A program made the position numbers and the translations under genes. Below the pieces are notes generated by a model. The model was not told the origin of the DNA. It saw only the letters and a list, made by a program, of their open reading frames with translations, and searched no databases. 64,000 bases of DNA from Armatimonadota bacterium (lineage in GTDB: Bacteria > Armatimonadota > Hebobacteria > CAIYQO01): positions 2,467 through 66,466 of the forward strand of contig JAGUZN010000398.1 of NCBI GenBank assembly GCA_020060775.1, read 5' to 3'. Positions within the stretch are counted from its first letter, which is position 1; each line of letters opens with the position of its first letter. This document shows, in pieces, positions 1 through 28,391 of this stretch.

Positions 1-449
1 TGACGGCGACCGTCAACAGTGTGGGCGCGGCCCTGGATGCTGTGAGCGGCTATCCTATGCCGGAAGGCGACCCGGTGCACAATGAAACGCGCGCACAAAC
101 GGCGCGGCTTGATATGCAGATGGAACTGCAGAACGTTCCCCCCGAGCGGATGCCTGAGGCGGTGCACCAGGCGGTGCGCGATGCCGTGCAGCAGGGTGAT
201 GCCGTGACGCTGAATCTTCTCAATGGCCCATGGTTGCGCCGATATTTGCGCTCGCGCGGCATGGGTGAAATGCAAATTCAATCCATTGCCGGCGTGGTTG
301 ATCGGGAACTGTTGCCGGCATTGCCGGATGCACAGCGGAAAGCGCGGTTGAAGCGCGAGAAGGTCAACACCACGCTTAACCATATTGGGCAATCATCGCA
401 GCAGTACGCGCGTCACAAACTCGAAGAGTTGCGCGGCATGAAAATTTAG
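1..449 (+). CDS. Hypothetical protein, 5'-truncated by the window start (frame open from position 3); part of the low-GC island
   Basis: The ORF-track ORF 21..449 continues in frame to the window edge with no stop. No recognisable motifs. Confidence 0.45.
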   Translation, partial: TATVNSVGAALDAVSGYPMPEGDPVHNETRAQTARLDMQMELQNVPPERMPEAVHQAVRDAVQQGDAVTLNLLNGPWLRRYLRSRGMGEMQIQSIAGVVDRELLPALPDAQRKARLKREKVNTTLNHIGQSSQQYARHKLEELRGMKI

Positions 450-528
450 CGGCTCGCGGCCACGAGATCAGCAAGGGGCGGGGCTGGCGAATCGACCCCC
501 ACCCCTCCCCCTTGCTGACATTTATAAC

Positions 529-858
529 ATGATCGGACAGTGTAGTTATGGCAATCGAGGTGATAAGGTGCTAACAACCATTCTAGAGCGCGAGCAGGAT
601 TTAATTGACGAGCTCGTGCACGGTGTAGAGCAGTGCCTGCATATGGTATTCAATAGCCCATGTTATAGCGTAGCAGAGAAGCGGCATAAAGCCTATGGTG
701 CAATTGATGAGATCGCGCGCAACATACAGGCAATCTATGCCAACAACGACAGTAACTATCCTGCAGACAGTGACAACATGGTGGCTGTGTCGGCAGCGAG
801 AGCGCTCGCGGATGCACGCATTGCTAGTCTGCGCGCTGGTGTGGCGTCTCGTCGGTAG
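529..858 (+). CDS. Hypothetical protein (island orphan, lower-GC)
   Basis: 109-aa ORF with the same orientation and tight spacing as the neighbouring island genes. About 48% GC. No known motifs. Confidence 0.35.
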   Translation: MIGQCSYGNRGDKVLTTILEREQDLIDELVHGVEQCLHMVFNSPCYSVAEKRHKAYGAIDEIARNIQAIYANNDSNYPADSDNMVAVSAARALADARIASLRAGVASRR

Positions 859-897
859 TCTATGGGCGAAAAGTGGGAGAGAGAGTAGTTTTTTGCT

Positions 898-2946
898 ATG
901 ACGGACATTGTACGAACCGCAAACGAATTTTATATTGGTGACCTACTCACCAATTACGCCTATCAAACGCAATTCGGCTATGCGATTACGGATATTCCTG
1001 CCGCCAAATTTGAAGAGAAATTGCGGTTTGATGAATATCAGAATGTAAATAACGTCTTCTATTTGCCTGCCATTAATGGCGTCGTATTGATGTTCGATTA
1101 CGAAGCGCAGAACATGCAATTGTCGCAGTTCACTGTTGCGCAAGGCGACTTCAATACTACCAAAATATCTGTTGAGCGCACGCCTGACTCAAATTATATT
1201 CACGCCTACAATGCGAGCGCAAACCATATTACGGATATTACTAGTAATTATTTATTGCCCGCCACTCCCTCATTTCATTTTCAATTCCATCGTATGCCCA
1301 TGACCCCCGCCAATATGGACCCGGCAGACCAAGAATGGCGCTTGTCATTTGGTGGGGGCTATACGTTAATGTGGAAGCGTATGCACGACGGCCCGGAATT
1401 GTACTATAACAATAAGCTTATATCGTCGTATATTGTGGACCTTGAGGATGCCGAAAAATACGCAACAGACTCGGCGTTGTATTGGAAAATATATAACCTT
1501 ATGGGTAGGCTATATATTATCTGTTCGGCTTTTCGTAACCCATGGATCATTGATGATATTGGCGAATTGCCCGCCGCCACATTCCGTGTACAGGGCGCGG
1601 GCGGGGAATATGCGTTTAATTTAACGCCGTATACTTTCGCCACAAGCGGCTATTTTGAAACCGATCTTGTCGAGCATATTTGGAATTATGATAGTGGCGA
1701 TTTAGTGGGAACAGTATTCCCAAGTTTGCCGAGCAATTGCACTGCAACGATCACCGTGGTGGAGGAAGTTGGTACTAGCAAACGCTATCGTGTGGCGTTG
1801 ACGGGGCCGGGCACCACCACGCCGGTTGTACAAGCATTTGAATATTTGTATATGCCGGAATTCTCCACGCCTTCGGCGGTCTGGAAAAATATTACCCCGT
1901 GGGTTTACAAGGACCAGGGCACCGAAACCATGCCCAAGGATTTATCCGCGCGGTCACTCTCAATCAATCTCGTACCAGACAAAATCATTAATGGGCAGAA
2001 TTTATGGGATTTCGTCGGCGGGCTGAACGGCCAATATGCCTTCAAATATAAAATTGGCTATCAATATGCGAATGGTAGTACGGATACCCAGGATAGGATG
2101 CAGGGCGTATTAACCGTTAACGATTACAAATTGGAAGTGAAAAAATTCGGAAGGCTCACATTGACTGCCGTGGATAAGTGGGAACGGTTGGCGGGCACTG
2201 CGCTTTTGTTCGCCCCGAATTTGACCGGCTTGCGCGTGGATGTGGCGATTGCGTTGATCGCCAAATGGGGCGGGATTCCAAGCACTCACATCGCGAGCGA
2301 AGCTATCAATATCTATATTGATGAGCCCGTCACGGATGCCACGCGCATTCCATGGCTTGCGGCGAACGGGACTAGTGCCGGGGATTTCATCCGCCAATTG
2401 GCGACCACGTATGGCGCTGTGGTGGAATTCGACGAGGACGGCGTTTTGCAAATCCGCAACGGCTACAATACAGCTTCGCAGGCGACATATCGATACGATG
2501 AGGGGGCGACACTGGATGAGGCGATTATCAGTGTCGAGGAGCACGAGGATACGCAGGGAGCAAAAAACATTGTCATGGTGGAGGGACAGACGGAAGGCGG
2601 GCGACCATTTTTTGCCACGGTCTACGATATTGAGAGTATTCAGACGAGTGGCGCGGGGGGCTTCCTTGGGCGTCCATCGGTGCATTACGAACGGAAGCCG
2701 GATTGTACGACGGCGGCGAGTGCCAGAGAAGCCGCTATTGCGATTTTCCGGGAAGTAAATCGCGGCTGGCCACGCCGGACAATACGCTCAAAAATTGGCG
2801 ATTTATGGAAAGCCTGGCCGAATCAATATATCACATTGATTAATACGGCTGGGCATGGCACGGAAGATGTATTGATCACAGAAATTACCGGCAAACTTGG
2901 GGCTGTGATTAACGAGCATACGGCAACCGGCGAAGTGCGGGGATAG
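898..2946 (+). CDS. Large orphan protein (682 aa), phage structural / tail- or host-specificity-like candidate
   Basis: Uninterrupted 2 kb ORF preceded by a GGGAGAGAGAG SD. Its GC content is much lower than the core genome. It sits in an island with an excisionase-family gene and an att-like tRNA fragment. No catalytic motifs recognised. Confidence 0.6.
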   Translation: MTDIVRTANEFYIGDLLTNYAYQTQFGYAITDIPAAKFEEKLRFDEYQNVNNVFYLPAINGVVLMFDYEAQNMQLSQFTVAQGDFNTTKISVERTPDSNYIHAYNASANHITDITSNYLLPATPSFHFQFHRMPMTPANMDPADQEWRLSFGGGYTLMWKRMHDGPELYYNNKLISSYIVDLEDAEKYATDSALYWKIYNLMGRLYIICSAFRNPWIIDDIGELPAATFRVQGAGGEYAFNLTPYTFATSGYFETDLVEHIWNYDSGDLVGTVFPSLPSNCTATITVVEEVGTSKRYRVALTGPGTTTPVVQAFEYLYMPEFSTPSAVWKNITPWVYKDQGTETMPKDLSARSLSINLVPDKIINGQNLWDFVGGLNGQYAFKYKIGYQYANGSTDTQDRMQGVLTVNDYKLEVKKFGRLTLTAVDKWERLAGTALLFAPNLTGLRVDVAIALIAKWGGIPSTHIASEAINIYIDEPVTDATRIPWLAANGTSAGDFIRQLATTYGAVVEFDEDGVLQIRNGYNTASQATYRYDEGATLDEAIISVEEHEDTQGAKNIVMVEGQTEGGRPFFATVYDIESIQTSGAGGFLGRPSVHYERKPDCTTAASAREAAIAIFREVNRGWPRRTIRSKIGDLWKAWPNQYITLINTAGHGTEDVLITEITGKLGAVINEHTATGEVRG

Positions 2947-3047
2947 TTGTTGCACAGTGGCGTCGTCGTCGGGGCGGGGCTGTCTACACCTCCAGCCTTT
3001 CGGTCTAGGTTGATCGACCCCGACGGCGGCCCTTACACCAGCAATAA

Positions 3048-3710
3048 ATGCCAATAGGGGATGGGAATATGCCACAATGCAAAACCTGCGTACACCCACA
3101 GCGGGAGGAGATCGAAAGCAAACTAGCATCCGGCATGAGCGCGGGCGCGGTGGCGCGGCAATATCCGGGGGTGACGCGCGCGCAGATCAAACATCATTAT
3201 GACGTACACGTCCGATTGATGCCTCCACCCGTGCAAACGACGGCGGCGAGCGAGCAGGATACTCCTGTTGCCGGCCTGGATGATTTACCCACCCCCTGCC
3301 CGGTATGCGTGCATCCCCGGCTGGAACTCATTGATGAATTATTGATAGCGGGATGCGGCCTTGTCGCGGTTGCTCAAGTCGCCGGTCGGGGCGTCACGGC
3401 GAAGCACCTGAGAAAACACCGGAGGGAGTGCCTGGCAGGTGAGCAGCCCCCGGTTGAAACAGTAAGTTATCACAAGAAGGCGCGCCTGCTGGCCGAGGTG
3501 ATCGAGCGGCTTGCCGGGCGCATGATCGAGCGCGAGCCCCGATTTTCTCTTTTCGATGCCATGGCGGCCTGTCGCCTGGCTGAGTCTGAATTACGCATAT
3601 TGGCGGTTGGGGAGGCGCGCGTTGGATACCCGCGGCGGCAGGATTTTCACCGGCAGGGAGGCGTGGTGTTGGGCGGGGATGACAGGTCATCGGTATATTC
3701 GATTTTCTAG
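3048..3710 (+). CDS. Duplicated CxxC zinc-ribbon + HTH-like module protein (putative DNA-binding regulator)
   Basis: Two internal repeats of about 45 aa. The first begins CKTCVHP and ends with a G-V-T-x-x-x-I-K-H-H stretch. The second begins CPVCVHP and ends with a G-V-T-x-x-x-L-R-K-H stretch. GC-rich, unlike its flanking genes. Confidence 0.5.
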   Translation: MPIGDGNMPQCKTCVHPQREEIESKLASGMSAGAVARQYPGVTRAQIKHHYDVHVRLMPPPVQTTAASEQDTPVAGLDDLPTPCPVCVHPRLELIDELLIAGCGLVAVAQVAGRGVTAKHLRKHRRECLAGEQPPVETVSYHKKARLLAEVIERLAGRMIEREPRFSLFDAMAACRLAESELRILAVGEARVGYPRRQDFHRQGGVVLGGDDRSSVYSIF

Positions 3711-3776
3711 GGGTTGACAAGGTATTTACGCTATGTTATGATACCTTTCGATAACTTATGTAAGCGAGAGGATGCC

Positions 3777-3956
3777 ATGTCAGACAACGACGTGATGACT
3801 TTTGAGGAGGCGATGAAGCTTCTCAAGGTGAGCAGCACCACACTCTACCGCATGGTAAACGACGGGAGAATACCGGCTCGTAAAATCGGGCGGCAATGGC
3901 GCTTCTCGCGCCGGGTGTTGATGGAGTGGCTAGAGAGTGGTGAAAGCCATGGGTAG
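3777..3956 (+). CDS. Excisionase-family helix-turn-helix DNA-binding protein (Xis/MerR-like, about 59 aa)
   Basis: Sequence MSDNDVMTFEEAMKLLKVSSTTLYRMVNDGRIPARKIGRQWRFSRRVLMEWL matches the excisionase/HTH_17 pattern (hydrophobic-S-x-x-T-hydrophobic-Y then G-x-hydrophobic-P-x-x-K-hydrophobic-G-x-x-W-R-F). The ORF-track TTG start at 3714 is probably too far upstream. Confidence 0.6.
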   Translation: MSDNDVMTFEEAMKLLKVSSTTLYRMVNDGRIPARKIGRQWRFSRRVLMEWLESGESHG

Positions 3957-4524
3957 TAGCTGTCCGCTCGATATGTCGCTAATCCCCGAGGTGTTCCGTG
4001 AAGGAGCGGAACAAGCATGGATGCAACGCGATGTCGCCCAAATACTATGCTACATTGACAACCTAGATTGCTTGGCCTTCGTGGTTGACAACCTTCGCTC
4101 CCTAAAAATAGCTGGCCTTTACGAAGAGGCACTACTAGACGCCTATTTTATTACCCGAGTGAATCACCACAGATGGGAGCTAGGTGCTTTACAAATGATA
4201 TTTGAGGTGGCAGACCGCAAGGTAATGCTCGGCCTTTGTGAAGACATTCCGACACCTCTACCCTGTACAATTTATCGTGGTGTATCCGGCAGGGGGCGCA
4301 ACCGACGGGTTAGAGGGTTGTCATGGACACTCGACTTTGAGCAAGCTAAGTGGTTTGCCACACGGTATAAAGAACTGCCTTCCCCTGCGGTGTATCAGTA
4401 CACTGTGAAGGATGATCGTTATATCTATGCATATAGCAATGATCGGCAAGAGCAGGAGGTGGTGTGTCTGTTGCCACGTCATGCGAAGCCAAAGTTGGTA
4501 TGGGGGACAGACTCGAAGAGATAA
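3937..4524 (+). CDS. Hypothetical protein (195 aa), AT-rich insert within the island
   Basis: ORF with about 48% GC flanked by about 60% GC ORFs. GTG start overlaps the excisionase stop. No confident family assignment. Confidence 0.45.
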   Translation: MVKAMGSSCPLDMSLIPEVFREGAEQAWMQRDVAQILCYIDNLDCLAFVVDNLRSLKIAGLYEEALLDAYFITRVNHHRWELGALQMIFEVADRKVMLGLCEDIPTPLPCTIYRGVSGRGRNRRVRGLSWTLDFEQAKWFATRYKELPSPAVYQYTVKDDRYIYAYSNDRQEQEVVCLLPRHAKPKLVWGTDSKR

Positions 4525-4604
4525 CCGAATAATACGCAGTAGGGGCAGGATGCTACCAACACCCCACCCCTGCGGCCACACTGACAACCAAAGGAGAAAA
4601 CAGC

Positions 4605-4907
4605 ATGACCGAGAACATTGTATCACGCACGAACCTGGACCGCGAACTCACGAACCGGCCCACAGCACCGGGCGACGAATGGCGGCGCGGCGTAGCCCTG
4701 GCGCTCACGGATGCACGGGATGAGATTCAAGACCTGATTAACATGGTCACACTTGAATCCACTGACCATGGTTCCGGCACGCGCGAGCACCCTGGGCGCA
4801 CGGACATTGGCGCATACTACAACGGGATAACCGTTGCCATCGGCCTGCTTGCCGAAGTGGCGAGCACGAAGTTTAATATTGTTGGGCCCCACAAGGGGAA
4901 TGACTAA
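4605..4907 (+). CDS. Hypothetical protein (100 aa)
   Basis: ATG preceded by an AAAGGAGAAAA SD at the right spacing. Co-directional island gene. Confidence 0.4.
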   Translation: MTENIVSRTNLDRELTNRPTAPGDEWRRGVALALTDARDEIQDLINMVTLESTDHGSGTREHPGRTDIGAYYNGITVAIGLLAEVASTKFNIVGPHKGND

Positions 4908-4957
4908 CGGCAATCCTGCCGCACGACCAAGGGGAGGGAGAATAGGACAAACTAGAG

Positions 4958-5263
4958 GTGACTAGTTGTATTACCAGTGAGCGCAGCGTCGTGTACGTGA
5001 TGCCTCCCCATATCGCGCGCCAATTCGATGCCCGTGTATTAGCGGATGAGGAATATTTCCAAACTCATGCTAATACATGGGCATTTTGTCGCCCGGTCGA
5101 ATTGTGCGACACCTGGCCCGCGTACCCCGTGGACCCGGAAGGCGTCATGGTGCGCGTTACGCAGTGGGCGGGCGGGCAATATCGGCGCGAGGTGTTCCGG
5201 CAAGGGGGCGGGGAGGTAGTCATGCGCCATATTGGTCATGGCGGGTGTTCTATGGTAGAGTGA
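4958..5263 (+). CDS. Hypothetical protein (101 aa)
   Basis: ORF following a GGGGAGGGAG SD. Start codon uncertain (GTG at 4958 or ATG about 5000). Confidence 0.35.
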   Translation: MTSCITSERSVVYVMPPHIARQFDARVLADEEYFQTHANTWAFCRPVELCDTWPAYPVDPEGVMVRVTQWAGGQYRREVFRQGGGEVVMRHIGHGGCSMVE

Positions 5264-5310
5264 CGCGGCAGGGATTCCCCTTCCCAAACTAGCGAAAGGT
5301 AGCCTATACC

Positions 5311-5490
5311 ATGCCGATTCAGTTTGCCTCAGACGAAGAGCGCGAGGATTTCTACCAGCGACAAATGCGCGTGATTCGACCATACGTAGATGAATTCATG
5401 GAAGATTTCCGCGCGGGCAAGGTGGATGAGAACTACCGGTTTTCCGAGCGAGAGCACGCGCAACCGAAACCGCCAACGCATGAGAAGTAG
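5311..5490 (+). CDS. Small hypothetical protein (59 aa, below the ORF-track cutoff)
   Basis: ATG at 5311 preceded by an AAAGGTAG SD. Encodes MPIQFASDEEREDFYQRQMRVIRPYVDEFMEDFRAGKVDENYRFSEREHAQPKPPTHEK and is co-directional with the island genes. Confidence 0.25.
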   Translation: MPIQFASDEEREDFYQRQMRVIRPYVDEFMEDFRAGKVDENYRFSEREHAQPKPPTHEK

Positions 5491-5539
5491 CCCCGGCGTG
5501 CGGTGGGTGAGCATTTAGCCCGCAGTGCTCCTAGCCCTC

Positions 5540-5568
5540 TTGACGCCTGTGTGTGCGTCTTGTAGAGT
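5540..5568 (+). promoter_or_regulatory. Sigma70-like promoter (TTGACG, 17 nt spacer, TAGAGT) reading into the repeat / tRNA-fragment region
   Basis: Hexamers with a 17-nt spacer read directly from the sequence. Confidence 0.3.
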
Positions 5569-5595
5569 AGCCCCGGAGGTTCGAGCGCGGCGAAA

Positions 5596-5693
5596 AATCG
5601 TTAGGTCTAAAGGGGTATCATCGACAATCGTTAGGTCTATTTGAGCGTGAAAATATGGTAGTGGTAGAGCAAACGGCTCATAATCGTTAGGTC
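5596..5693 (+). repeat. Three direct copies of AATCGTTAGGTC(T) (about 5596-5608, 5626-5638, 5682-5693); the third copy is the anticodon-stem/variable-loop segment of the tRNA fragment
   Basis: Exact 12-13 nt repeats spaced about 30 and 56 nt apart. Candidate integrase arm-type or duplicated core sites. Confidence 0.5.
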
Positions 5694-5721
5694 ACTGGTT
5701 CGAATCCAGTCGCTGCCACCA
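5660..5721 (+). tRNA. 3' fragment (D-loop to CCA) of an elongator-type tRNA-Met(CAU); no 5' acceptor strand or D-stem partner, so this is not a complete gene. Likely the attR core copy
   Basis: D-loop AGTGGTAGAGC. Anticodon arm AACGG-CTCATAA-TCGTT (U33, CAT, A37). Variable loop AGGTC. T-arm ACTGG-TTCGAAT-CCAGT. Acceptor 3' strand CGCTGCC-A-CCA. The complementary GGCAGCG is absent upstream. Confidence 0.55.
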
Positions 5722-5731
5722 CCCAGATTTT

Positions 5732-5764
5732 GCCCGGAGTCCGCGAGACTCCGGGCTTTTTATT
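5732..5764 (+). terminator. Rho-independent terminator (10-bp GC stem GCCCGGAGTC/GACTCCGGGC, 5-nt loop, TTTTTATT)
   Basis: Perfect inverted repeat followed by a T-run immediately after the tRNA fragment. Confidence 0.6.
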
Positions 5765-5785
5765 CAGCACCCCGGCCCGCTGCCG

Positions 5786-7507
5786 TTAGAGTTCGAGGAT
5801 GACAGGGATGACCATGGGACGGCGGCGCGTGCGTTCATACACAAACCGGTTGAGCGCGGTGCGCACGGCTGACTTGGCAGATTCCCAATCCGTGCTGCTG
5901 TCGACGCTCAGTTCACGCACAGTGTTCACGACCACCGTTTTCGCATCCTCAATAAGCGCTTCCGCTTCCTGTACGTAGACGAATCCCCGCGTAATGATAT
6001 CCGGACCGGCCACCACCTCGCCGGTTTGCGAGTCGATGCCGGCCACGGCGATGAGGATGCCATCCTGTGAGAGGTGTTTGCGGTCGCGCAGCACCACGGT
6101 GCCGATGTCCCCCACCCCCAGGCCATCGATCATCACGCGCCCGGCCTGCACCTGGCCAATGACCTGCGCGCCATCAGCGGTCATCTCCAGCACATCGCCG
6201 GAATGGAGTAAGTAGATGTGATCATCGGCATACCCCATGCTCTGCGCCAGATTGCGGAACTGTACGAGGTGTCGGAATTCGCCGTGCATGGGAATGAGGA
6301 ATTGCGGCGACGTGAGCGTGAGCATCATCTTCAACTCTTCTTCGTTCCCATGCCCCGACACGTGCACCTGATCGTGGCCCTGATAGATGACATTCGCGCC
6401 AGTGCGGAAGAGCTGGTTGATGGTGCGATACACAAGATCCTCATTCCCCGGGATCGGGGTGGCGGAAATGACCACGAGGTCGCCCTGACTGAGTTTGATG
6501 AACTTATGCTCGCCAGCTGACATCAGCCGCAACGCGGAGAGCGGTTCACCCTGGCTGCCGGTGGTGAGCACGGTGACCGCTTCAGGCGGATAGGATGCCA
6601 CCTGATCCGGCTCGATGAGGATATCCGGATAGGGAAGTTGGATGAACCCAAGCTGGCGTGCGACATCCATATTGCCGCGCATGCTGCGCCCGATCACACA
6701 GACACGGCGGTGGTTGCGCGCGGAAACATTCAGCACTTCCTGCATCCGGGCGATATTTGACGCAAAGCAGGCGACGATCACGCGTCCGGTAGCATCGGCA
6801 AATAATTCGTCGTAGCTTGCGGCCACTTCACGTTCAGACGGCACCCACCCGGCACGCTCGACATTAGTTACGTCGGTCATCAACGCCAGCACGCCGGTGG
6901 ACGCGGCATGCACGAGCTTATGCACCTCGGTGCGTTGCCCCAGCAGCGGTGTCTGATCGAACTTGAAATCGCCGGTGTGGACGACGCGTCCGGCCGGCGT
7001 GTCGATGATCATCCCCACCCCATCGGGAATGCTGTGCGTCACGCGGAAGAAAGCGATGGTGAACGGCCCCAACTCCAGTGTGGCATCGGGATCGATCTCA
7101 TGCAATTGCACCGGAGGGAGATACGGATGCTCGGCAAGCTTGTTGCGCACGAGTCCGAGTGTCAAACGCGTCCCCCACACCGGAAGATCCAGCTCATTGA
7201 GCACCCAGGGCAGCGCGCCGACGTGGTCTTCGTGACCATGGGTTAAGATGATGCCGTGCACGCGTTCCGCATTCTCGAGCAGAAACGTGATATCGGGGAT
7301 GACCAGGTCGATGCCCAGCATTTCCTGTTCGGGGAAGAGGAGTCCGCAGTCGATGACGATGATTTCACCGCCATACTCATACGCGAACATATTTTTCCCT
7401 ATTTCACCGATTCCCCCGAGTGGAATGAAGCGCAATGCCTCGGGATTCGTGGCAAAGGATGGTTTGGCATCCTGGGGCTCGACACCCTGACCAATCGGTT
7501 CTTCCAA
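5786..7507 (-). CDS. rnj: Ribonuclease J (metallo-beta-lactamase / beta-CASP family)
   Basis: HGHEDH zinc motif and beta-CASP region. Length and architecture are typical of RNase J. Confidence 0.9.
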   Translation of the reverse strand: MEEPIGQGVEPQDAKPSFATNPEALRFIPLGGIGEIGKNMFAYEYGGEIIVIDCGLLFPEQEMLGIDLVIPDITFLLENAERVHGIILTHGHEDHVGALPWVLNELDLPVWGTRLTLGLVRNKLAEHPYLPPVQLHEIDPDATLELGPFTIAFFRVTHSIPDGVGMIIDTPAGRVVHTGDFKFDQTPLLGQRTEVHKLVHAASTGVLALMTDVTNVERAGWVPSEREVAASYDELFADATGRVIVACFASNIARMQEVLNVSARNHRRVCVIGRSMRGNMDVARQLGFIQLPYPDILIEPDQVASYPPEAVTVLTTGSQGEPLSALRLMSAGEHKFIKLSQGDLVVISATPIPGNEDLVYRTINQLFRTGANVIYQGHDQVHVSGHGNEEELKMMLTLTSPQFLIPMHGEFRHLVQFRNLAQSMGYADDHIYLLHSGDVLEMTADGAQVIGQVQAGRVMIDGLGVGDIGTVVLRDRKHLSQDGILIAVAGIDSQTGEVVAGPDIITRGFVYVQEAEALIEDAKTVVVNTVRELSVDSSTDWESAKSAVRTALNRFVYERTRRRPMVIPVILEL

Positions 7508-7703: not shown

Positions 7704-9149
7704 ATGGCTGAATACGAACCGGTGATTGGATTTGAGATTCACGCTGAACTGGCGACACACTCAAAAATTTTTTGCGGATGCAGCACCGAGCCTGGTGCGC
7801 CGCCGAACACCCATACCTGCCCTATCTGCCTCGGGCTGCCCGGGGTGTTGCCCGTGTTGAATCGCACGGCGCTGGAGTACGGATTGAAGGTGGCGCTCGC
7901 CTGCCACTGTTCGGTGCCCAGCCCATCGATCTTCGAGCGGAAGAATTACTACTACCCCGACCTTCCGAAAAATTACCAGATTTCGCAAAAGCGTTCGCCC
8001 ATCGGTCTCGACGGCTGGTTTGAGTTCGAGGTGGACGGACAGCCAAAGCGTGTGAGTATTATCGACATTCACCTCGAGGAGGATGCCGGCAAACTGATTC
8101 ATCCGGAAGAACGCAGTGCGGCCGGGCAGAGCCTGGTGGATTTCAATCGGGCGGGTGTGCCGTTGCTGGAAATCGTCTCTGGCCCGGATTTACGCAGCAT
8201 CGCCGAGGCGGAAGCCTATATGGCAGGGATGCGGCAATTGCTGCTATATCTGGACGTCTCGCACGCACGTATGGAGCTGGGGCAAATCCGCTTTGAAGCG
8301 AACATTTCAGTGCGGCCCAAGGGATCGACCACCTTGGGCAAGCGCGTCGAGGTCAAGAATGTGAACTCGTTCCGCACAGTGACGCGGGCGATCGAATATG
8401 AGATCGACCGCCAGATCGAAGCCTATGAACAGGGTGAGCGCGTGCTGCAGGAAACGCGCTTGTGGGATGAGGCGCGCGGGATGACAGTGGCGATGCGCAG
8501 CAAAGAGGAATCGCATGACTATCGCTATTTCCCCGAGCCTGATCTGGTGCCCATGGTGTTCACCACGGAGTATCTGAACGGTTTGCTCGCGCAACAGCCA
8601 GAGTTGCCTGCTGCGCGCCGCACGCGATTTATCGAGCAGTTCGGATTGCCCGCATACGATGCGGCGATCCTGACCTCGGAGAAAGCTTTTGCCGACTTTA
8701 TCGATGCGGCGGTCGCATTGGGTGTTTCGCCGAAAGCCGTATCCAACTGGATGATGGGCGAGATGCTGCGCCTGTTGAATGAACGCGGCCTGGCGCCGGA
8801 AGCCATGCCGGTGCAACCGCGGCAATTGGTGGAACTCATCGCACTGGTTGAGGCTGGACGCATCAACACCACCCAGGCCAAGAAGGTGTTCGAAGAGATG
8901 TTCGAGACCGGGCGCGATGCGGAAGCGATCGTACAGGACCGCGGCTTTGCGCAGATCTCCGACACGTCCGCGCTGGAGGCGATTGTGGATGCTGTGCTTA
9001 CTGCCAATCCGGAGCCGGCAGCCCGTTATGCGGCGGGTGAGGACAAACCGTTAGGATTCCTGGTCGGCCAGGTCATGCGCGAATCACGCGGCCAGGCCAA
9101 TGCCCCGATGGTCAACGAGCTGTTACGCCGGCGTCTACGCGGCGAATAA
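7704..9149 (+). CDS. gatB: Asp-tRNA(Asn)/Glu-tRNA(Gln) amidotransferase subunit B
   Basis: N-terminus EPVIGFEIHAELATHSKIFCGC...CPICLGLPGVLP and a C-terminal GatB/YqeY-type domain. Confidence 0.95.
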   Translation: MAEYEPVIGFEIHAELATHSKIFCGCSTEPGAPPNTHTCPICLGLPGVLPVLNRTALEYGLKVALACHCSVPSPSIFERKNYYYPDLPKNYQISQKRSPIGLDGWFEFEVDGQPKRVSIIDIHLEEDAGKLIHPEERSAAGQSLVDFNRAGVPLLEIVSGPDLRSIAEAEAYMAGMRQLLLYLDVSHARMELGQIRFEANISVRPKGSTTLGKRVEVKNVNSFRTVTRAIEYEIDRQIEAYEQGERVLQETRLWDEARGMTVAMRSKEESHDYRYFPEPDLVPMVFTTEYLNGLLAQQPELPAARRTRFIEQFGLPAYDAAILTSEKAFADFIDAAVALGVSPKAVSNWMMGEMLRLLNERGLAPEAMPVQPRQLVELIALVEAGRINTTQAKKVFEEMFETGRDAEAIVQDRGFAQISDTSALEAIVDAVLTANPEPAARYAAGEDKPLGFLVGQVMRESRGQANAPMVNELLRRRLRGE

Positions 9150-9172
9150 GGACACACCTAGACGTACATGAT

Positions 9173-9212
9173 CACCGCCTGATGGACCATTATGGGCTTC
9201 CATCAGGCGGTG
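9173..9212. terminator. 13-bp perfect stem-loop (CACCGCCTGATGG/CCATCAGGCGGTG) between convergent gatB and gcvH; putative bidirectional terminator without a strong T-tract
   Basis: Inverted repeat read from the sequence. Confidence 0.4.
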
Positions 9213-9235
9213 AATGTTTACGGGCTGGGCTGCGC

Positions 9236-9622
9236 TCAGGCCAGTTTCGCCTGGTATTCGGCAGCGGTCTGCAGGCTATCGTACTCATCGGGGTTGGCCA
9301 TGTCGATTTTGACCATCCAGCCGGCGCCGTACGGATCTTCATTAATTTTTGCCGGTTCATCGATCAGCGCTTCATTCACTTCGACGACCTTGCCGCTCAC
9401 CGGCGTGTACAGGTCGGAAATGCTCTTCACGGATTCCACGCTGCCCATCACTTCTTCCGCGGCGAGTTCGTCATCGACCTGCGGCAGATCGACGTATACC
9501 ACTTCGCCGAGCTGATCCTGGGCGTAGTGGGTGATACCGATGGTCGCCACATTGCCATCTTTGCGCACCCACTGGTGGGTCTCGTTATATTTCACATCGT
9601 CAGGGTACATAAGCTCCTCCAC
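9236..9622 (-). CDS. gcvH: Glycine cleavage system H protein (lipoyl carrier)
   Basis: Lipoyl-lysine region ESVKSISDLYTPVSGKVVEVN. Length 128 aa. Confidence 0.9.
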   Translation of the reverse strand: MEELMYPDDVKYNETHQWVRKDGNVATIGITHYAQDQLGEVVYVDLPQVDDELAAEEVMGSVESVKSISDLYTPVSGKVVEVNEALIDEPAKINEDPYGAGWMVKIDMANPDEYDSLQTAAEYQAKLA

Positions 9623-9762
9623 TATGAAATTTGTGTTGCCGTACAGACTATCGGCCTCATGGCTGCTGCGGAGTGTTGCCTCGCGGCAGAGCCGGGATGC
9701 CGGACGCCCGTATCTTTTCTACAACACCTACCGCTAAATTCCCTCCTGCTCTTCCATAAAGA

Positions 9763-10245
9763 ATGCACACACGGTACAATACAGGCATGGAAAGATATAC
9801 GACCAGTCTCGATGTCCACATTTTCCAGCGTCAGGCGGGCCGCATGCTCTACCTGCTGCTGCACCGGGGACCGCAGAGCGGACATGCCGGCCAGTGGGAG
9901 GCCGCGTCCGGTCCCTTGGCCGAGCAGGACGATCTCATTGCCGCTGCCAAGCGCGTGGTCGCACTGGAAAGCGGGTTACAGCCCATGGCCCTCTATGCCC
10001 TGGATTACCTGCACAGCTATTTCGACCCACAGGACGGCCGCATCCATCTCGCGCCGGTCTTTGCCGCTGAAGTGGCGGAGGAGGCGGTGACCACCGCCAG
10101 CGACGTTGATGCCAGTCGCTGGGTGACTTACGATCAGGCCATGGAGATGTTGCGCCGACCCGGACATCGCAAGGGCTTGCAGCGCACGCACGAGGATGTG
10201 GTAAGCGCCGTGGACCGCGGTGGTCCCTTCCGCATTTCCCGCTGA
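9763..10245 (+). CDS. NUDIX-family hydrolase (probable)
   Basis: Size of about 155 aa and a Nudix-box-like segment (AAAKRVVALESGL). The start may instead be the second ATG at 9787. Confidence 0.55.
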   Translation: MHTRYNTGMERYTTSLDVHIFQRQAGRMLYLLLHRGPQSGHAGQWEAASGPLAEQDDLIAAAKRVVALESGLQPMALYALDYLHSYFDPQDGRIHLAPVFAAEVAEEAVTTASDVDASRWVTYDQAMEMLRRPGHRKGLQRTHEDVVSAVDRGGPFRISR

Positions 10246-11604: not shown

Positions 11605-12435
11605 ATGTCGGCCTTGCCTTTTGAACTCATCTCTCTGGATCTCGACCTCACGTTCCTGGACACGCACCATCGGATCAGTCCGCGCAATCTGGCTGCCGTA
11701 CGCCAGTGTCACGCCCTGGGGGCGAAAGTCATAATTACTTCGGGGCGAATGTACCGGTGCACGTTGCCATACATCCACGAGTGCAACCTGCACGACACCC
11801 CAGCCATCACGTATAACGGCGCGTATATCAAGCAGGAGAATACCGGAGAGATCTTGCTTCACGAACATCTGGATATCAACGTGGCGCAGGAAGTGGTGGA
11901 ATTCTGTGCTCGCGAAGGCTTGAATCTCAACTATTATCTGGATGATCACCTGTACATCGATCAGCCCAATGCCTGGGCTGATTTGTATGCAGAGCGTACC
12001 GGTGCACCATTGAATGCGGTCGGAGACCTGCGCCAATTCGCCGACTGTGCGCCAACGAAAGTACTGATCGTGAACGAACCGTCGCGGATCGCCCGGTTGT
12101 TCGACGTCATGCGGGAATACTATGCCGGCCGGGCATACGTGACCATTTCGAACGCGGAGTATCTGGAATTCATGCCGATCGGCGTGGACAAAGGCAAGGC
12201 GCTGTCAATGGTGGCCGAGCACTTCGGCATTGCGCGAGAGAAGGTGATCGCCTTCGGGGATGCCGGCAACGATGTTCCGGTATTGCGTTGGGCGGGGGTT
12301 GGCGTGGCCATGGAAAACGCGGGCGAAGCCGCGAAAGCCGCAGCTGATCGTATCGCCCCGCGACATGACGAGGATGGCGTGGCCGTTGTGCTGGAAGCTT
12401 TATTCGGCTTTGTGTCAACTGCCAGCGTCTCCTAG
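11605..12435 (+). CDS. Cof-type HAD-IIB family hydrolase
   Basis: Motif I LISLDLDLTFLD and the C-terminal FGDAGNDVPVL motif. Start placed at the internal ATG 11605 rather than ORF-track 11545. Confidence 0.8.
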   Translation: MSALPFELISLDLDLTFLDTHHRISPRNLAAVRQCHALGAKVIITSGRMYRCTLPYIHECNLHDTPAITYNGAYIKQENTGEILLHEHLDINVAQEVVEFCAREGLNLNYYLDDHLYIDQPNAWADLYAERTGAPLNAVGDLRQFADCAPTKVLIVNEPSRIARLFDVMREYYAGRAYVTISNAEYLEFMPIGVDKGKALSMVAEHFGIAREKVIAFGDAGNDVPVLRWAGVGVAMENAGEAAKAAADRIAPRHDEDGVAVVLEALFGFVSTASVS

Positions 12436-12450
12436 ATTGCAGAGGCAGCC

Positions 12451-12735
12451 ATGATGGTGGTGGGCGTCGCCGAAATCGCCCTGGAGATTACCGATGCCAT
12501 GACGTTGAAGGATAAGCGTCAAGTGGTGCGCAGCCTGTTGGCACGCATCCGCAACAGCTTCAATGTCTCTGCTGCCGAAGTTGGCCAACTGAATGCCCAC
12601 CGGCAGACCACGCTGGGCATCGCCGGGGTCGCCAACGAGAAGGCCTACGTACACGGCATGCTGGAAAAGATTGTGGATTTGATCGAGCGTGACGGGCGTG
12701 TGTTGTTATTGGATTATTCAATTGAATTCGTCTAG
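12451..12735 (+). CDS. DUF503 (YlxP-like) protein
   Basis: 94-aa protein immediately upstream of rbfA, the conserved ylxP position. Confidence 0.7.
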   Translation: MMVVGVAEIALEITDAMTLKDKRQVVRSLLARIRNSFNVSAAEVGQLNAHRQTTLGIAGVANEKAYVHGMLEKIVDLIERDGRVLLLDYSIEFV

Positions 12736-12762
12736 ATGACATGCCACCTTGCAGGAGAACCC

Positions 12763-13137
12763 ATGGCTTCAACACGACAACAAAAAATGGCGCGTGTGCT
12801 GCGGGACGAGTTGAGCCGCATTATACGCGAAGAAGTGAATGACCCGCGATTGGGGCTGGTGTCGATCACCGGTGTCGATGTCGCTCCGGATATGAAATCG
12901 GCCCGCGTGTACGTGAGCGTATATGGCTCACAGGACGAACAGCAACAGTCACTGGACGTGCTGGTGCGGGCCAGCGGTTTCTTGCGCGGCGAGTTCGGAC
13001 GGCAGATCAACCTGCGGTATACCCCCCAGCTTTTTTTTGAACTGGATACGTCACTGGAACGCGGGGCACGTGTTGTCGAACTCTTGCATGAGATCGAGAA
13101 AGAGCAGCAGAAAGAACATCATGAAGATCAGGCCTGA
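12763..13137 (+). CDS. rbfA: Ribosome-binding factor A
   Basis: RVLRDELSRIIREEVNDPRLGLVSITGVDVAPDMKSARVYVSV. Start at ATG 12763. Confidence 0.85.
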   Translation: MASTRQQKMARVLRDELSRIIREEVNDPRLGLVSITGVDVAPDMKSARVYVSVYGSQDEQQQSLDVLVRASGFLRGEFGRQINLRYTPQLFFELDTSLERGARVVELLHEIEKEQQKEHHEDQA

Positions 13138-24239: not shown

Positions 24240-27200
24240 TCAGGGTGTCAGCAGCAAAGCGCGGAACGAGCGCTTGGGCACGGTGATCTGTGCCACACCA
24301 TTGCGCATGGTAAAGCTCGCCGCCTGCAGGTTGACTGTGATGTAGGGCGGCTCGGGATCACCCGCATTGGCGTACCATCCCGGAGGACCTTGCCAGGAGA
24401 AGTTGCTGATGCGGAACAGGTCGATCAGCGTACTGTTCGCCAGTTTCTGGAAGCCCAGCTTACCGAGGTTGGGCTTCAGCGTGAGGGTGACATCCTGGTC
24501 CGAGTTATTCATCGGCACGAGCACCAACCAGCCGTCATTGCTCTCGCCTAACTCGCGAAGAGTCTGTTTCACTTCTTCACCTACAATGAAATTGCGGTAA
24601 GTGGTGATGCGGTCTTGCTGGCGCATTTCCGGCACGATGGGCACTGGTAGGCCGGACGGGCGGTAGTAGACCGAGCAGACGATCTGCTCGGGTGCCCCAC
24701 CCTCGACGGTCAGTGCATCGCCTAACTGCCAGTAGCCGAGGAAACGCACGTGATCGTCCCAGCGCATCATGCGGCAGACTTCCTGCATCCACATCCAGGC
24801 TAACTGCAGATCGTTGCCGCCGATCTGCCACATGTCGTGGATCATCCCCAACCCGGCGACATGCTCGTAATCCGACCAGCGTGGCAAATCCCATTCACCA
24901 TGCTGCCCATCCTTCGGCGGCGTGAGCATACGTCCATACCACCCTGCCCGCAACTCGGGCGTGTCACCATAGGCGGAAGCCATCTCGGTAAGAAAACTCG
25001 ATTCATGTCCCCATAGCCAGGGCGTGAGCCAGATGCGGCAGGTATGCATGTCCAGTATGCGGTAGTAGTTCTTCTCAGGCGTTCCGCGTAATGGTCCAAT
25101 CAGCCCTTCGCCCAACCAGTTTTCGTCACAGAAGGGGACAATCACGGGATTAGGCCCCCAATCGTGGAAACGCACCCAGCCATCCTTGGGATCTGCGGCT
25201 TTAATGAGATTGTAGATGCGCTCGTAATGCCGGCGAGTCGCCAGCATGGTGCCGGTTTCGCGCAAGATCCCCTGGTCATCGATATACCCGCACCCATGCG
25301 CCAGATTTTTGCAATGGGGATTTCCCATGCAGTCGAAGTAGATTGCACGTTGCGGATAGTTCTTGATGAACTGATCCAGCAACCAGATCTGCAGGTCGCT
25401 GGCTGAAGAATTGTGGCAGGCCGGGCCCCAGGCAGTGCTGTTGGGGTCAGGCTTGGCGAGGTCGGATGGGATATTCCGCCACTCACGCCACCACTCTGCA
25501 TATTCGGGCGAGCCTATCCACTGGTATGGACCGAAAGCGTACCAGCAAGTAATGGGCCCATCGGGACGGTTCATCGTACGGGCCATGTGCTCGTAATCTT
25601 CCGGCTTGCCGGTGGGCTTGGGGTAGTTCGGCGTAGCGTAGGTGTAATCCCCCGCCGTGTAGCTGATGCCGCGATACAAACTGAGCGTCCGCCGATCTGT
25701 TCTCACGGGCTTAGAGGGCGTAGCCGTCCAACCGAAACTGAGAGAGCGCGGTTTGGCAAGTTGCACCGGTTTTTGGATCACTTTGAGCTTGATCGTCACT
25801 TCATCCGGTCCAGGGACCATTTCTGCGGGATGCGTCCCGGCCAGTTCCCATCCGCGTTGGTCATCCCAAAAATAGCTGAACCCACCCTGTTCATTGCCGA
25901 ACCAATAGGTGCCATAGACCGTTTCGATCGCCTTATCGCCGATGGGGCTCATGCCGGCCATATTCTTCATCGTGACCGTCTTCCGGTCCAGCGGAATTTC
26001 CACAGTGAGCGCATCCACCTGGTCGCCGGAAAGGGTCAGGGTCATATAAGTGAGCCCATCGAATTCGATCCATCCGTTAATGCGGATCTGCAGGTTGCCA
26101 TCCTGGGCGGTGGACACCCAGCTTGCCTTGCGTCGCGTGTGTTCAGTAAGCTTCATCGACCCGGCGGTGATGACCTTCTCTTCACCGTTATGCGTGAGGC
26201 GAAGGCGTACCGGTCCCGCGAACAGGGACTGTCCGTTCGTCACGATCTGTCGCGGGAAGAGCAATTGCGGATCACACGTAATATCCTTCAACAGCAACTT
26301 CACCGTGTTCCCATTAACCTGCACATCTGTCCAGGGGATGGGCGGACCATCGATGACGCCTGCCGTATTGTGGTACCACTCCGGCAGCGGTTCCTTTTCA
26401 AAGGGCTGCCGATCTTCACTTACCACGTCCTTGCCGCGGAAGAGGCGCGCGCATATCTCGTACTTCCCCACCGGGAGCGATTTTGTCTCGAATGCGACAG
26501 TTTCCGCAGGGTCATCGAATGCTTGAATCTCATGTGTTTCGAGCGTTTTGCCTTCCTTGTTTAGCGTAACAACGGCGTGCAACTCAGCAGGACGGAGGGG
26601 TTTCACGGTGACCTCCAACTTACCCCACCCGGGATAATTCACCAACTCCATCACTGAAGGCGCCACGAAGACGAAGGGCAACGAACGGTTGAGGATACCG
26701 TTGCCCTCGGGGTCGAGTATTTCAACGACTAATCCGATATCGCCCGGTTGCTCCAGGCGATAGGGCACGGCAAAGGTATGCAATCCCTTCTCGACCGTGA
26801 TGGTCGCCTCCTTTTCAAAGGATTGACCGAACCCCTGGGCTTTGAGCTTCACCGTGTATGCACCGGCCGGCCCGATGATGCTGCCATACACCGTCAGTTC
26901 GCCATTGGCGGCATCCCCGAGACTGGCGACCGATGCGCTGGCCGATGGGCGGAGGGACAACTTGCCCGGGGAAGGTTGGCTGCGTTCATCCGCACACAAA
27001 GCATTTTGCGATGAGGAAAAGAGCTTCCAGGAGCGGAGCACATTGAAATCCACCGTGTCGCCCACCGTCACGCCGATCTCTTTCAGCGGGATAGCGGCTT
27101 CAATGATCCAGGCATTGAAATCCGCGTGACTTGACCAGACAATCTGTTGGGCGTTCCAAGTGCGATCGAAGTCACGGCTATCCACCAGCGTATTGCTCGC

Positions 27201-28391
27201 ATTGAAGATAAAGCGATAGGTGCGGCCATCCTTGCTGCCGATGTTGAACTGCACGTAATCATCGCCATGGATATCCGCGTCACGGGGCAGAGCGCGGGTG
27301 AGGAATTGCCCCTGCGGATACCAGATGTGCGTCGGGTCTTTGCTGATGATGTCGTGCACCGGGGAATAAAATGCCAGGTACAGGTTGTCGGCATCGCAGG
27401 TGGCGTAGACTACGCCGGGGTCGAAGTAATCCACCACCCCGACCTGCCGCTCGATGAACGCGCCATGGCCGGGGATATGTTTCCACTCTGCCAGATTGCC
27501 ATCAGGTTTGACTGGCATACCGACCACCGGAGCCACAAAATTATGCCCGGCGTAGGCACGCTCGGGCTTGGTGACTAACTTATCGGGGATATTGCCGACC
27601 TGCTGCTTGGTCGTCGTATGTCCCCGCTCAAACAGCGCACGGATTTCTTCATCCGCCAGCGGACGCCTGAAGATTTGCACTTCGTCGATGACGGCATCAT
27701 CTTCGAATTCCTTCTTCTGGAAGTCTAACCAGGTCATCCCTTCCGCGGCCACTTCGAATTTCTCGGGCGTGGGATGAATGACGCCGCACTCGGGGGTAAC
27801 GCTCATCAGGTGCCCGTTGTAATAGGCGCGCGCTTCATCCTTCTGCCAGGTCAACGCAAAGTGGATCCAGGGGTTCTGTTTGAAGTCCGCGTCGTAGAAG
27901 TATCCTCCCTTCTGGCTGTAGTGATATTGGTGATGCATATACTGGTTGCGCACGATTTGCAGCGGCCACATGCGGAAGAAGGGGTGGGCCATATTATGTG
28001 AGTTCGGCAGCCCTTTAATCCAGAATGCCACCGTACCGGAATCGCCGAAGAGGTTATTTTTCTCGCCGTACATCTCGTCGCAGGCGCGCGGGCCGCCCTT
28101 ATAACCCGTGTAGTAGGCAATCCCGCTCTTCTTGCCGCCGAACAGATAGGCCTTGCCAATGATCCCTTCGACGATACGTTGTTCCAACTGCTCTGGCATC
28201 TCGGCGGGATCGGCCGAGCCGCGCGCTAACTCGGGATACACGCCATCCTCGAAGGAGAGATAAAAAAGAAGGTCGGATGAGTCGAGTGCGTGTGTGGGAG
28301 GAGAGGCTAGCATGATGCAGGCAGTGAACAACAGGTATAGACAGGCAGCGCTCATCATACCACACCAATGGTACAGTTTCATGGGTATCAC
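24240..28391 (-). CDS. Giant secreted protein (1383 aa): signal peptide, LamG/ConA-like jelly-roll, CBM-like and TIM-barrel-like regions; putative glycan-active enzyme
   Basis: Hydrophobic N-terminal signal-like segment. LamG-like region SFEDG...TVAFWIKG. A Cys/Trp-rich central region. Confidence 0.55.
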   Translation of the reverse strand: MIPMKLYHWCGMMSAACLYLLFTACIMLASPPTHALDSSDLLFYLSFEDGVYPELARGSADPAEMPEQLEQRIVEGIIGKAYLFGGKKSGIAYYTGYKGGPRACDEMYGEKNNLFGDSGTVAFWIKGLPNSHNMAHPFFRMWPLQIVRNQYMHHQYHYSQKGGYFYDADFKQNPWIHFALTWQKDEARAYYNGHLMSVTPECGVIHPTPEKFEVAAEGMTWLDFQKKEFEDDAVIDEVQIFRRPLADEEIRALFERGHTTTKQQVGNIPDKLVTKPERAYAGHNFVAPVVGMPVKPDGNLAEWKHIPGHGAFIERQVGVVDYFDPGVVYATCDADNLYLAFYSPVHDIISKDPTHIWYPQGQFLTRALPRDADIHGDDYVQFNIGSKDGRTYRFIFNASNTLVDSRDFDRTWNAQQIVWSSHADFNAWIIEAAIPLKEIGVTVGDTVDFNVLRSWKLFSSSQNALCADERSQPSPGKLSLRPSASASVASLGDAANGELTVYGSIIGPAGAYTVKLKAQGFGQSFEKEATITVEKGLHTFAVPYRLEQPGDIGLVVEILDPEGNGILNRSLPFVFVAPSVMELVNYPGWGKLEVTVKPLRPAELHAVVTLNKEGKTLETHEIQAFDDPAETVAFETKSLPVGKYEICARLFRGKDVVSEDRQPFEKEPLPEWYHNTAGVIDGPPIPWTDVQVNGNTVKLLLKDITCDPQLLFPRQIVTNGQSLFAGPVRLRLTHNGEEKVITAGSMKLTEHTRRKASWVSTAQDGNLQIRINGWIEFDGLTYMTLTLSGDQVDALTVEIPLDRKTVTMKNMAGMSPIGDKAIETVYGTYWFGNEQGGFSYFWDDQRGWELAGTHPAEMVPGPDEVTIKLKVIQKPVQLAKPRSLSFGWTATPSKPVRTDRRTLSLYRGISYTAGDYTYATPNYPKPTGKPEDYEHMARTMNRPDGPITCWYAFGPYQWIGSPEYAEWWREWRNIPSDLAKPDPNSTAWGPACHNSSASDLQIWLLDQFIKNYPQRAIYFDCMGNPHCKNLAHGCGYIDDQGILRETGTMLATRRHYERIYNLIKAADPKDGWVRFHDWGPNPVIVPFCDENWLGEGLIGPLRGTPEKNYYRILDMHTCRIWLTPWLWGHESSFLTEMASAYGDTPELRAGWYGRMLTPPKDGQHGEWDLPRWSDYEHVAGLGMIHDMWQIGGNDLQLAWMWMQEVCRMMRWDDHVRFLGYWQLGDALTVEGGAPEQIVCSVYYRPSGLPVPIVPEMRQQDRITTYRNFIVGEEVKQTLRELGESNDGWLVLVPMNNSDQDVTLTLKPNLGKLGFQKLANSTLIDLFRISNFSWQGPPGWYANAGDPEPPYITVNLQAASFTMRNGVAQITVPKRSFRALLLTP

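Follow-up and report, generated by a model that had tools for sequence, protein, structure and literature searches.

Tyrosine integrases are said to fall into tRNA sublocation classes, as set out by Williams in 2002. When islands and prophages target tRNA genes, a regenerated target and a displaced fragment mark the ends of the element, and islands and prophages of this tDNA-targeted kind have been gathered in the Islander catalogue (PMC4383910). The heterobivalent Int model is summarised elsewhere (PMC2951348), together with the case of KplE1, in which Int and the recombination directionality factor (RDF) TorI, through their binding, control a promoter that overlaps att. Finally, it is known that gene fragments left behind by such integration can be mistaken for tRNAs (van der Gulik et al. 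2023, PMC9897764).

The DNA considered here, referred to as the window, is a stretch of 64 kb from a metagenome-assembled genome (MAG) of the Armatimonadota. The region around its position 5660 is explained, with a probability of roughly 0.87, as the attR site (P arm, identity block and B' arm) of a prophage, or of a prophage remnant, in an Armatimonadota tRNA(CAU) gene. The locus resembles the Islander-type elements (PMC4383910) in that a tRNA gene is split; in these elements, a copy of the 3' part of the gene, brought in by the element, restores the gene at one end, and the displaced native 3' piece, in direct repeat, lies at the other and retains its downstream flank. This pattern is matched exactly by the 62-nt fragment together with the native terminator and the phage-derived flank. 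The locus departs from this set in three respects: a single end of the element can be seen; the identity block, from the D-loop to the CCA, is a long one, many integrases requiring no more than the sequence from the anticodon loop or the T loop onward; and the host phylum is barely represented among the characterised cases. The arms of lambda, L5 and KplE1 also offer close parallels, namely short direct repeats located in the phage arm within about 150 bp of the core and an excisionase-family gene encoded near the att site. There is even a promoter-like site, as in the KplE1 promoter that overlaps att, but here the match is at chance level. On the other hand, the arm-type and RDF sites of these three systems differ from the core, whereas a 14-mer at the present locus copies 12 nt of the identity block, and, unlike in these systems, no int gene stands beside xis in the visible part of the element. 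Like the cases of van der Gulik et al. 2023 (PMC9897764), the fragment is a partial tRNA that scores barely above the threshold of a covariance model, here in a bacterial MAG and with no difference of substance. The junction is an ordinary one, and the core-copying 14-mers are its sole mildly unusual element.

The tRNA(CAU) fragment and its intact relatives

The fragment lies on the forward strand at 5660–5721 and forms the att identity block. It is identical at 62 of 62 positions to positions 14–75, CCA included, of the intact tRNA(CAU) gene in L086, a relative, and what is missing is the first 13 nt, that is, the 5' acceptor strand and the 5' strand of the D stem. The CUCAUAA anticodon loop, the T arm and the CGCTGCC-A-CCA end are all in place, as a sequence-only reading of this DNA had described them; the same reading had proposed a 3' tRNA fragment of about 60 nt devoid of the 5' acceptor strand and of the D-stem partner, and the comparison with the relative bears this out. 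Beyond A14 in the 5' direction, no resemblance to the intact genes is left, whether to their conserved GGCAGCGTAGCTC or to their TTGACA-17-TATACT promoter. Within positions 1–5770, the tRNA piece at 5660–5721 is the only DNA with similarity to deposited phages. When viral contigs were scanned with a 34-mer of the tRNA, the matches were all intact jumbo-phage tRNAs, and an attP was not among them.

Relatives with an RNase J about 80% identical to that of the window carry the intact 75-nt tRNA(CAU), GGCAGCGTAGCTCAG(C/T)GG(T/C)AGAGC...CCA, near the RNase J gene and in the same relative orientation. Divided into its structural elements, the intact gene reads GGCAGCG-TA-GCTC-AG(C/T)GG(T/C)A-GAGC-A-AACGG-CTCATAA-TCGTT-AGGTC-ACTGG-TTCGAAT-CCAGT-CGCTGCC-A-CCA. 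Its promoter, a conserved TTGACA-17-TATACT, is located about 20 nt upstream of the 5' end of the tRNA, and the genes that precede the tRNA encode Phos_pyr_kin, Metallophos and methyltransferase proteins. Two of the relatives (L085 and L087) have a hairpin terminator shortly 3' of the CCA. A metagenome scan with the 3' 47-mer of the tRNA identified seven loci. The matches listed by a scan of genome contigs with RNase J were of no more than 53% identity, and among them five loci examined for the gene (L001, L003, L005, L068 and L075) had no tRNA.

The DNA that directly follows the CCA is wholly different among relatives: the terminator is kept in L085 and L087 and is absent in L084, where CsgG and aroA are found, as well as in L086 and L088. 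L085 has, between the tRNA and RNase J, an ORF of 338 aa without any family match. This variation suggests that the 3' side of tRNA(CAU) has been turned over repeatedly. In L084, a contig of 432 kb, the genes for GatB and for EPSP synthase are each split in two adjacent called genes (8350–9793 and 11709–13021), which are probably frameshift errors of the assembly rather than real pseudogenes.

The sequence-only reading had named the fragment tRNA-Met(CAU). Met is insecure: the best annotated phage matches to the fragment are tRNA-Ile, its best match in Escherichia coli is elongator tRNA-Met, and ARAGORN labels every CAU anticodon as Met. As between Met and Ile2, these results contradict each other. 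The gene encodes a tRNA(CAU) without initiator features, since it has a G1–C72 pair and an AACGG/UCGUU anticodon stem.

The two flanks of the junction

To the right of the fragment, the chromosome is native. An intrinsic terminator, that of the tRNA gene itself and now on the B' side of attR, occupies 5732–5756 on the forward strand, with a 10-bp stem containing eight G–C pairs followed by TTTTTATT; the prediction of a strong terminator at this place was correct. This 3' flank (CCAGATTT, the GCCCGG hairpin and TTTTTATT) is homologous to the terminators that follow the intact tRNA in L085 and in L087, and also to the one behind the tRNA fragment of L090. The first native gene to the right of the junction encodes RNase J (5786–7507, reverse strand; Pfam domains RNase_J_b_CASP, RNase_J_C and Lactamase_B), with orthologues of 75–81% identity in the Armatimonadota. 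Core genes make up the right flank, which besides RNase J includes GatB, the CCA-adding enzyme and genes of carbohydrate and amino-acid metabolism, and the synteny of GatB and RNase J is kept in L084. The GC content also differs between the two sides, being 0.51–0.55 to the left of the feature vs 0.58–0.60 to the right. Farther to the right, the window contains four large ORFs (1,098–1,710 aa), all on the reverse strand, at 24240–28391, 48365–52792, 52878–58010 and 60681–63977; the first of these has GH123_N and Laminin_G_3 domains. The four products are probably secreted glycan-degrading or surface proteins, which fits the Armatimonadota.

The left flank belongs to a prophage. The window starts inside this element, of which 5.5 kb are visible, and most of the ORFs in this part are small and without family match. 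A structural gene at 898–2946 (forward strand) encodes a tail-protein-like product of 682 aa that matches the PHROG family phrog_1887, 'tail protein' (E = 2.5e-10), and a homologue with 39% identity, P0122, is found in the phage structural block of L093, downstream of a P22-type coat gene. An excisionase-family gene with a helix-turn-helix (HTH) domain, a candidate for the RDF, is located on the forward strand at 3714–3956, 1.7 kb from the tRNA fragment. Its product matches Pfam HTH_17 (PF12728, E = 1.7e-19), the NCBIfam family TIGR01764, 'excisionase family DNA-binding protein' (E = 2.3e-15), and several excisionase families of PHROG (best E = 3.9e-13), and the true start of the gene is probably an internal ATG. 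The same HTH protein reaches 49 bits, against a cutoff of 80, with the NCBIfam model NF047737 (MADS system HTH protein MAD1), a match that most likely reflects the common HTH_17 fold. The final ORF of the prophage, of 59 aa, appears in the ORF list at 5311–5490 (forward strand) and gives no family match above threshold.

No integrase homologue is detectable within the 64-kb window, including the visible 5.5 kb of the element, and the element may be a decayed remnant rather than an excisable prophage. Scans of viral contigs with a 195-aa phage protein and with the 682-aa protein gave no matches. The loci that encode homologues of these two proteins (L093–L100) are mosaic elements with differing ends; they carry integrases without a counterpart in the window, and tRNA junctions were absent from all of them. 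A related element sharing this phage arm was not found.

Three of the seven loci from the 47-mer scan (L090, L091 and L092), which represent another lineage, show an insertion in the same tRNA gene. Each has an intact tRNA, then 1.05 kb of foreign DNA, then a tRNA fragment that begins at C13/A14, and then the native terminator. This insertion is an event independent of the one in the window and uses the same boundary of the identity block, and the fact that two different inserts share one fragment boundary points to elements whose attP carries tRNA positions 14–76. The insert, located at 648–1693 of L090 and the same in L091 and L092, encodes a HicB-like antitoxin and a HicA-like ORF that is truncated at the fragment, as well as a small ribbon-helix-helix-like ORF on the opposite strand, these genes having been read by eye from the sequence. 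It looks like the decayed remnant of an island, retained with its toxin–antitoxin genes.

An attR site in a tRNA gene is recognised, among other marks, by a fragment that is the 3' part, without the 5' part, of a tRNA of the host lineage, by mobile DNA 5' and native chromosome 3' of that fragment, and by the use of the same target and boundary in an independent event. All three are found here, and the earlier proposal of an att-like setting at an island boundary stands. The right boundary of the prophage is at 5659/5660. The native 3' flank has been retained, while the gene has lost its own promoter and its initial 13 nt to phage DNA, and this is the configuration expected of a displaced tDNA fragment (PMC4383910).

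On the established model of tDNA integration, recombination between an attP site and the chromosomal tRNA gene would have been the work of a site-specific integrase, in all likelihood one of the tyrosine recombinases, and positions 14 to 76 of the tRNA would have been present in copy on this attP. At the distant left end of the prophage, the promoter of the gene and its initial 13 nt would now be followed by the copy that the phage brought in, so that attL holds an intact tRNA, and the original 3' 62 nt, with their own terminator, would have been displaced to the right end, beside RNase J. Both the intact tRNA and the integrase are then expected beyond the left edge of the window.

Repeats in the phage arm

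The 12-mer AATCGTTAGGTC, located within the tRNA block at 5682–5693, where it comprises the 3' strand of the anticodon stem and the variable loop, recurs exactly and on the same forward strand at 5596–5607 and 5626–5637. There is no further match in the 64 kb, even when one mismatch is allowed; 0.11 occurrences are expected by chance, and none of 100 shuffles reached three copies. The two upstream copies, which the sequence-only reading had already pointed out, are identical to each other across 14 nt (AATCGTTAGGTCTA; 5596–5609 and 5626–5639). They lie in direct orientation, 30 bp apart and 21–64 bp upstream of the identity block. The DNA that flanks them has no significant similarity to the tRNA or between the copies (local alignment, p = 0.6–1.0). 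The exception is a CGGC upstream of copy 1, which is in register with the 5' strand of the tRNA anticodon stem (17 of 20 positions, 85%) and hints at descent from a duplicate of the tRNA rather than at a site selected purely by a protein. Both copies end at GGTC|TA, and neither is followed by a T arm or an acceptor strand. Extra copies of the 12-mer are absent from the loci of the relatives.

Where exact, sharp-edged repeats occur in otherwise unrelated DNA beside a recombination core, and an excisionase gene is close at hand, the simplest reading is that proteins bind to them. The 14-mers, short motifs repeated near the core beyond chance as is expected of arm sites, are best read as candidate binding sites of the integrase or of the excisionase, that is, Int arm-type or Xis/RDF sites of the P arm. 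Xis and arm-type Int sites of lambda and L5 are placed at a position comparable to that of the 14-mers. As the 14-mers reproduce 12 nt of the core, the same protein might also touch the core beside the crossover in the anticodon loop. There is another exact direct repeat in the phage arm, the 11-mer AGTAGCCCCGG, with copies on the forward strand at 5486–5496, overlapping the stop codon of the 59-aa ORF, and at 5566–5576, 80 nt away and following a –10-like hexamer; this may be another protein-binding motif. In the proposed mechanism, the 14-mers at 5596 and 5626, and possibly the 11-mers at 5486 and 5566, would be bound by Int, by the excisionase or by both in order to assemble the excision complex, and the third copy of the 12-mer would mark the core contact of the same protein next to the anticodon-loop crossover.

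The alternative that survives best leaves the junction as attR and changes only the meaning of the repeats: the 14-mers would be nonfunctional leftovers of short duplications, of gene conversion or of earlier tandem integrations, the 'footprints' that the sequence-only reading had offered as one of its options. This is an unlikely origin, though not a negligible one. The 12-mer is, after all, derived from the tRNA, the CGGC of copy 1 extends the resemblance to a 20-nt family, and tRNA(CAU) is a recurrent target, which makes serial integrations plausible. Genuine footprints, however, should reach the end of the tRNA, and the two copies stop far short of it; identity at 14 of 14 positions between such dissimilar flanks is not expected of neutral decay; and the relatives, with no extra copies, give no sign of the process. 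Treating the copies themselves as decayed tRNA fragments was likewise rejected for want of a significant alignment of flanks and tRNA, the CGGC of copy 1 being the one suggestive feature.

Other readings and significance

Far less probable is that site-specific integration played no part, and that a deletion or rearrangement in situ cut the tRNA gene short to leave a plain pseudogene beside foreign DNA. Neither an integrase nor an attL is seen in the window, and a TTGACG...GCCT...GTG pattern in the arm faintly resembles the tRNA promoter of the relatives, TTGACACGCCTCGTG. Its spacing and sequence are out of register with the conserved TTGACA-17-TATACT, though, and the candidate promoter at 5540–5568 was rejected as the native tRNA promoter on the same ground. 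The breakpoint, moreover, coincides with that of the independent fragment of L090–L092, which is accompanied by an intact direct-repeat copy, and the DNA upstream consists of phage genes, including the excisionase gene, instead of the Phos_pyr_kin, Metallophos and methyltransferase genes of the relatives. A CAU tRNA present in a single copy would be essential, so that its loss in situ without a regenerated copy is unlikely.

The attR reading has also to account for a marginal tRNA call. ARAGORN finds no tRNA in the whole 64-kb window. The Rfam tRNA model (RF00005), by contrast, aligns end to end with 5657–5718 at 31.3 bits, just above its gathering score of 29 bits, with the D arm deleted and GGUAGUG paired with CGCUGCC as an acceptor stem of 7 bp. 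A full-length, correctly folded tRNA would have spoken against the fragment proposed by the sequence-only reading, and none is present: the alignment at 5657–5718 has neither the complete cloverleaf nor the score of a canonical tRNA, the intact orthologues reaching 70–73 bits. A control fragment at the att site of a relative (L090, 1696–1754), which lies downstream of an unrelated, truncated HicA-like ORF, is likewise aligned end to end and scores 29.5 bits; the marginal match is an artefact, since this unrelated fragment scores alike. The reason for the pairing is simple, as the D-loop of the intact tRNA, GGYAGAG, on its own already pairs at six of seven positions with the 3' strand of the acceptor stem, and the 7/7 pairing in the window requires just three bases from outside the tRNA, GGT. 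The predicted transcript as a whole is no more stable than its shuffles (z = –0.35). The scores of the intact genes, the L090 control, the pairing of the D-loop and this z value together indicate that the cloverleaf is fortuitous and that the region is a 5'-truncated piece of a tRNA; a functional D-armless tRNA, raised as a candidate by the end-to-end alignment, was rejected on the strength of the L090 control and the pairing analysis. In assigning a D-armless tRNA here, Rfam falls into an annotation trap that has been described before (PMC9897764). As to its practical side, RF00005 passes two 3' fragments (31.3 and 29.5 bits, vs 29) by letting the 3' acceptor strand pair with the D-loop region, and automated annotation would label both 5657–5718 of the window and 1696–1754 of L090 as tRNA genes.

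The 'good promoter' of the sequence-only reading is present as a sequence, TTGACG-17-TAGAGT, on the forward strand of the phage arm at 5540–5568, yet it is not supported beyond chance, because it matches the consensus at 9 of 12 positions and one such site was found in the region where 0.7 are expected from shuffles. Should this putative promoter be real, it would belong to phage DNA reading outward across the att site. The start of the putative transcript (CCCGGAGGTTCG), at 5572–5583, shows 83% complementarity to the terminator 3' arm at 5744–5755, and is thus a near-copy, within the phage arm, of the terminator 5' arm. Such complementarity could be due to chance, to an anti-terminator-like pairing or to a relic of an older junction.

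These observations bear on the suggestion that the region is transcribed as a small RNA, which finds no statistical support. In one speculative and very improbable form, a phage-arm RNA of about 180 nt, started at the promoter-like site and carrying two mimics of the anticodon stem and variable loop and a D-armless, CCA-ended tRNA(CAU)-like domain, could be a decoy or competitor that engages a factor of the host which binds tRNA(CAU), for instance TilS, MetRS or an anticodon nuclease. In a milder variant, the integrase would recognise 'arm' and core sites alike through one DNA-binding specificity, and this would account for repeats that copy the core. The weakest of the alternatives is a functional non-canonical RNA in general, either a D-armless tRNA-like molecule or a phage small RNA of about 180 nt that decoys a tRNA-binding enzyme or nuclease: it can appeal to the end-to-end Rfam alignment with its 7-bp acceptor stem, to the promoter-like site and strong terminator on either side, and to the fact that an acceptor/T-arm minihelix is in principle a substrate of RNase P and of the CCA-enzyme, but the like match of the L090 fragment, the fortuitous pairing, the much higher scores of the orthologues and the empty ARAGORN result, the unremarkable stability, the chance-level promoter, a terminator that is simply the native one of the tRNA gene and an architecture conserved at no other locus leave it hardly any credibility.

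Read as attR, the region has several uses. It sets the right boundary of the prophage in this Armatimonadota MAG, and it flags a tRNA fragment that passes the Rfam threshold and is prone to be mis-annotated as a tRNA gene. It also shows that, in a little-studied phylum, integration has repeatedly targeted a tRNA(CAU) gene located near RNase J. If the 14-mers are true Int or Xis sites, the locus would provide a ready set of att and binding sites for a new integrase, in a phylum without genetic tools.
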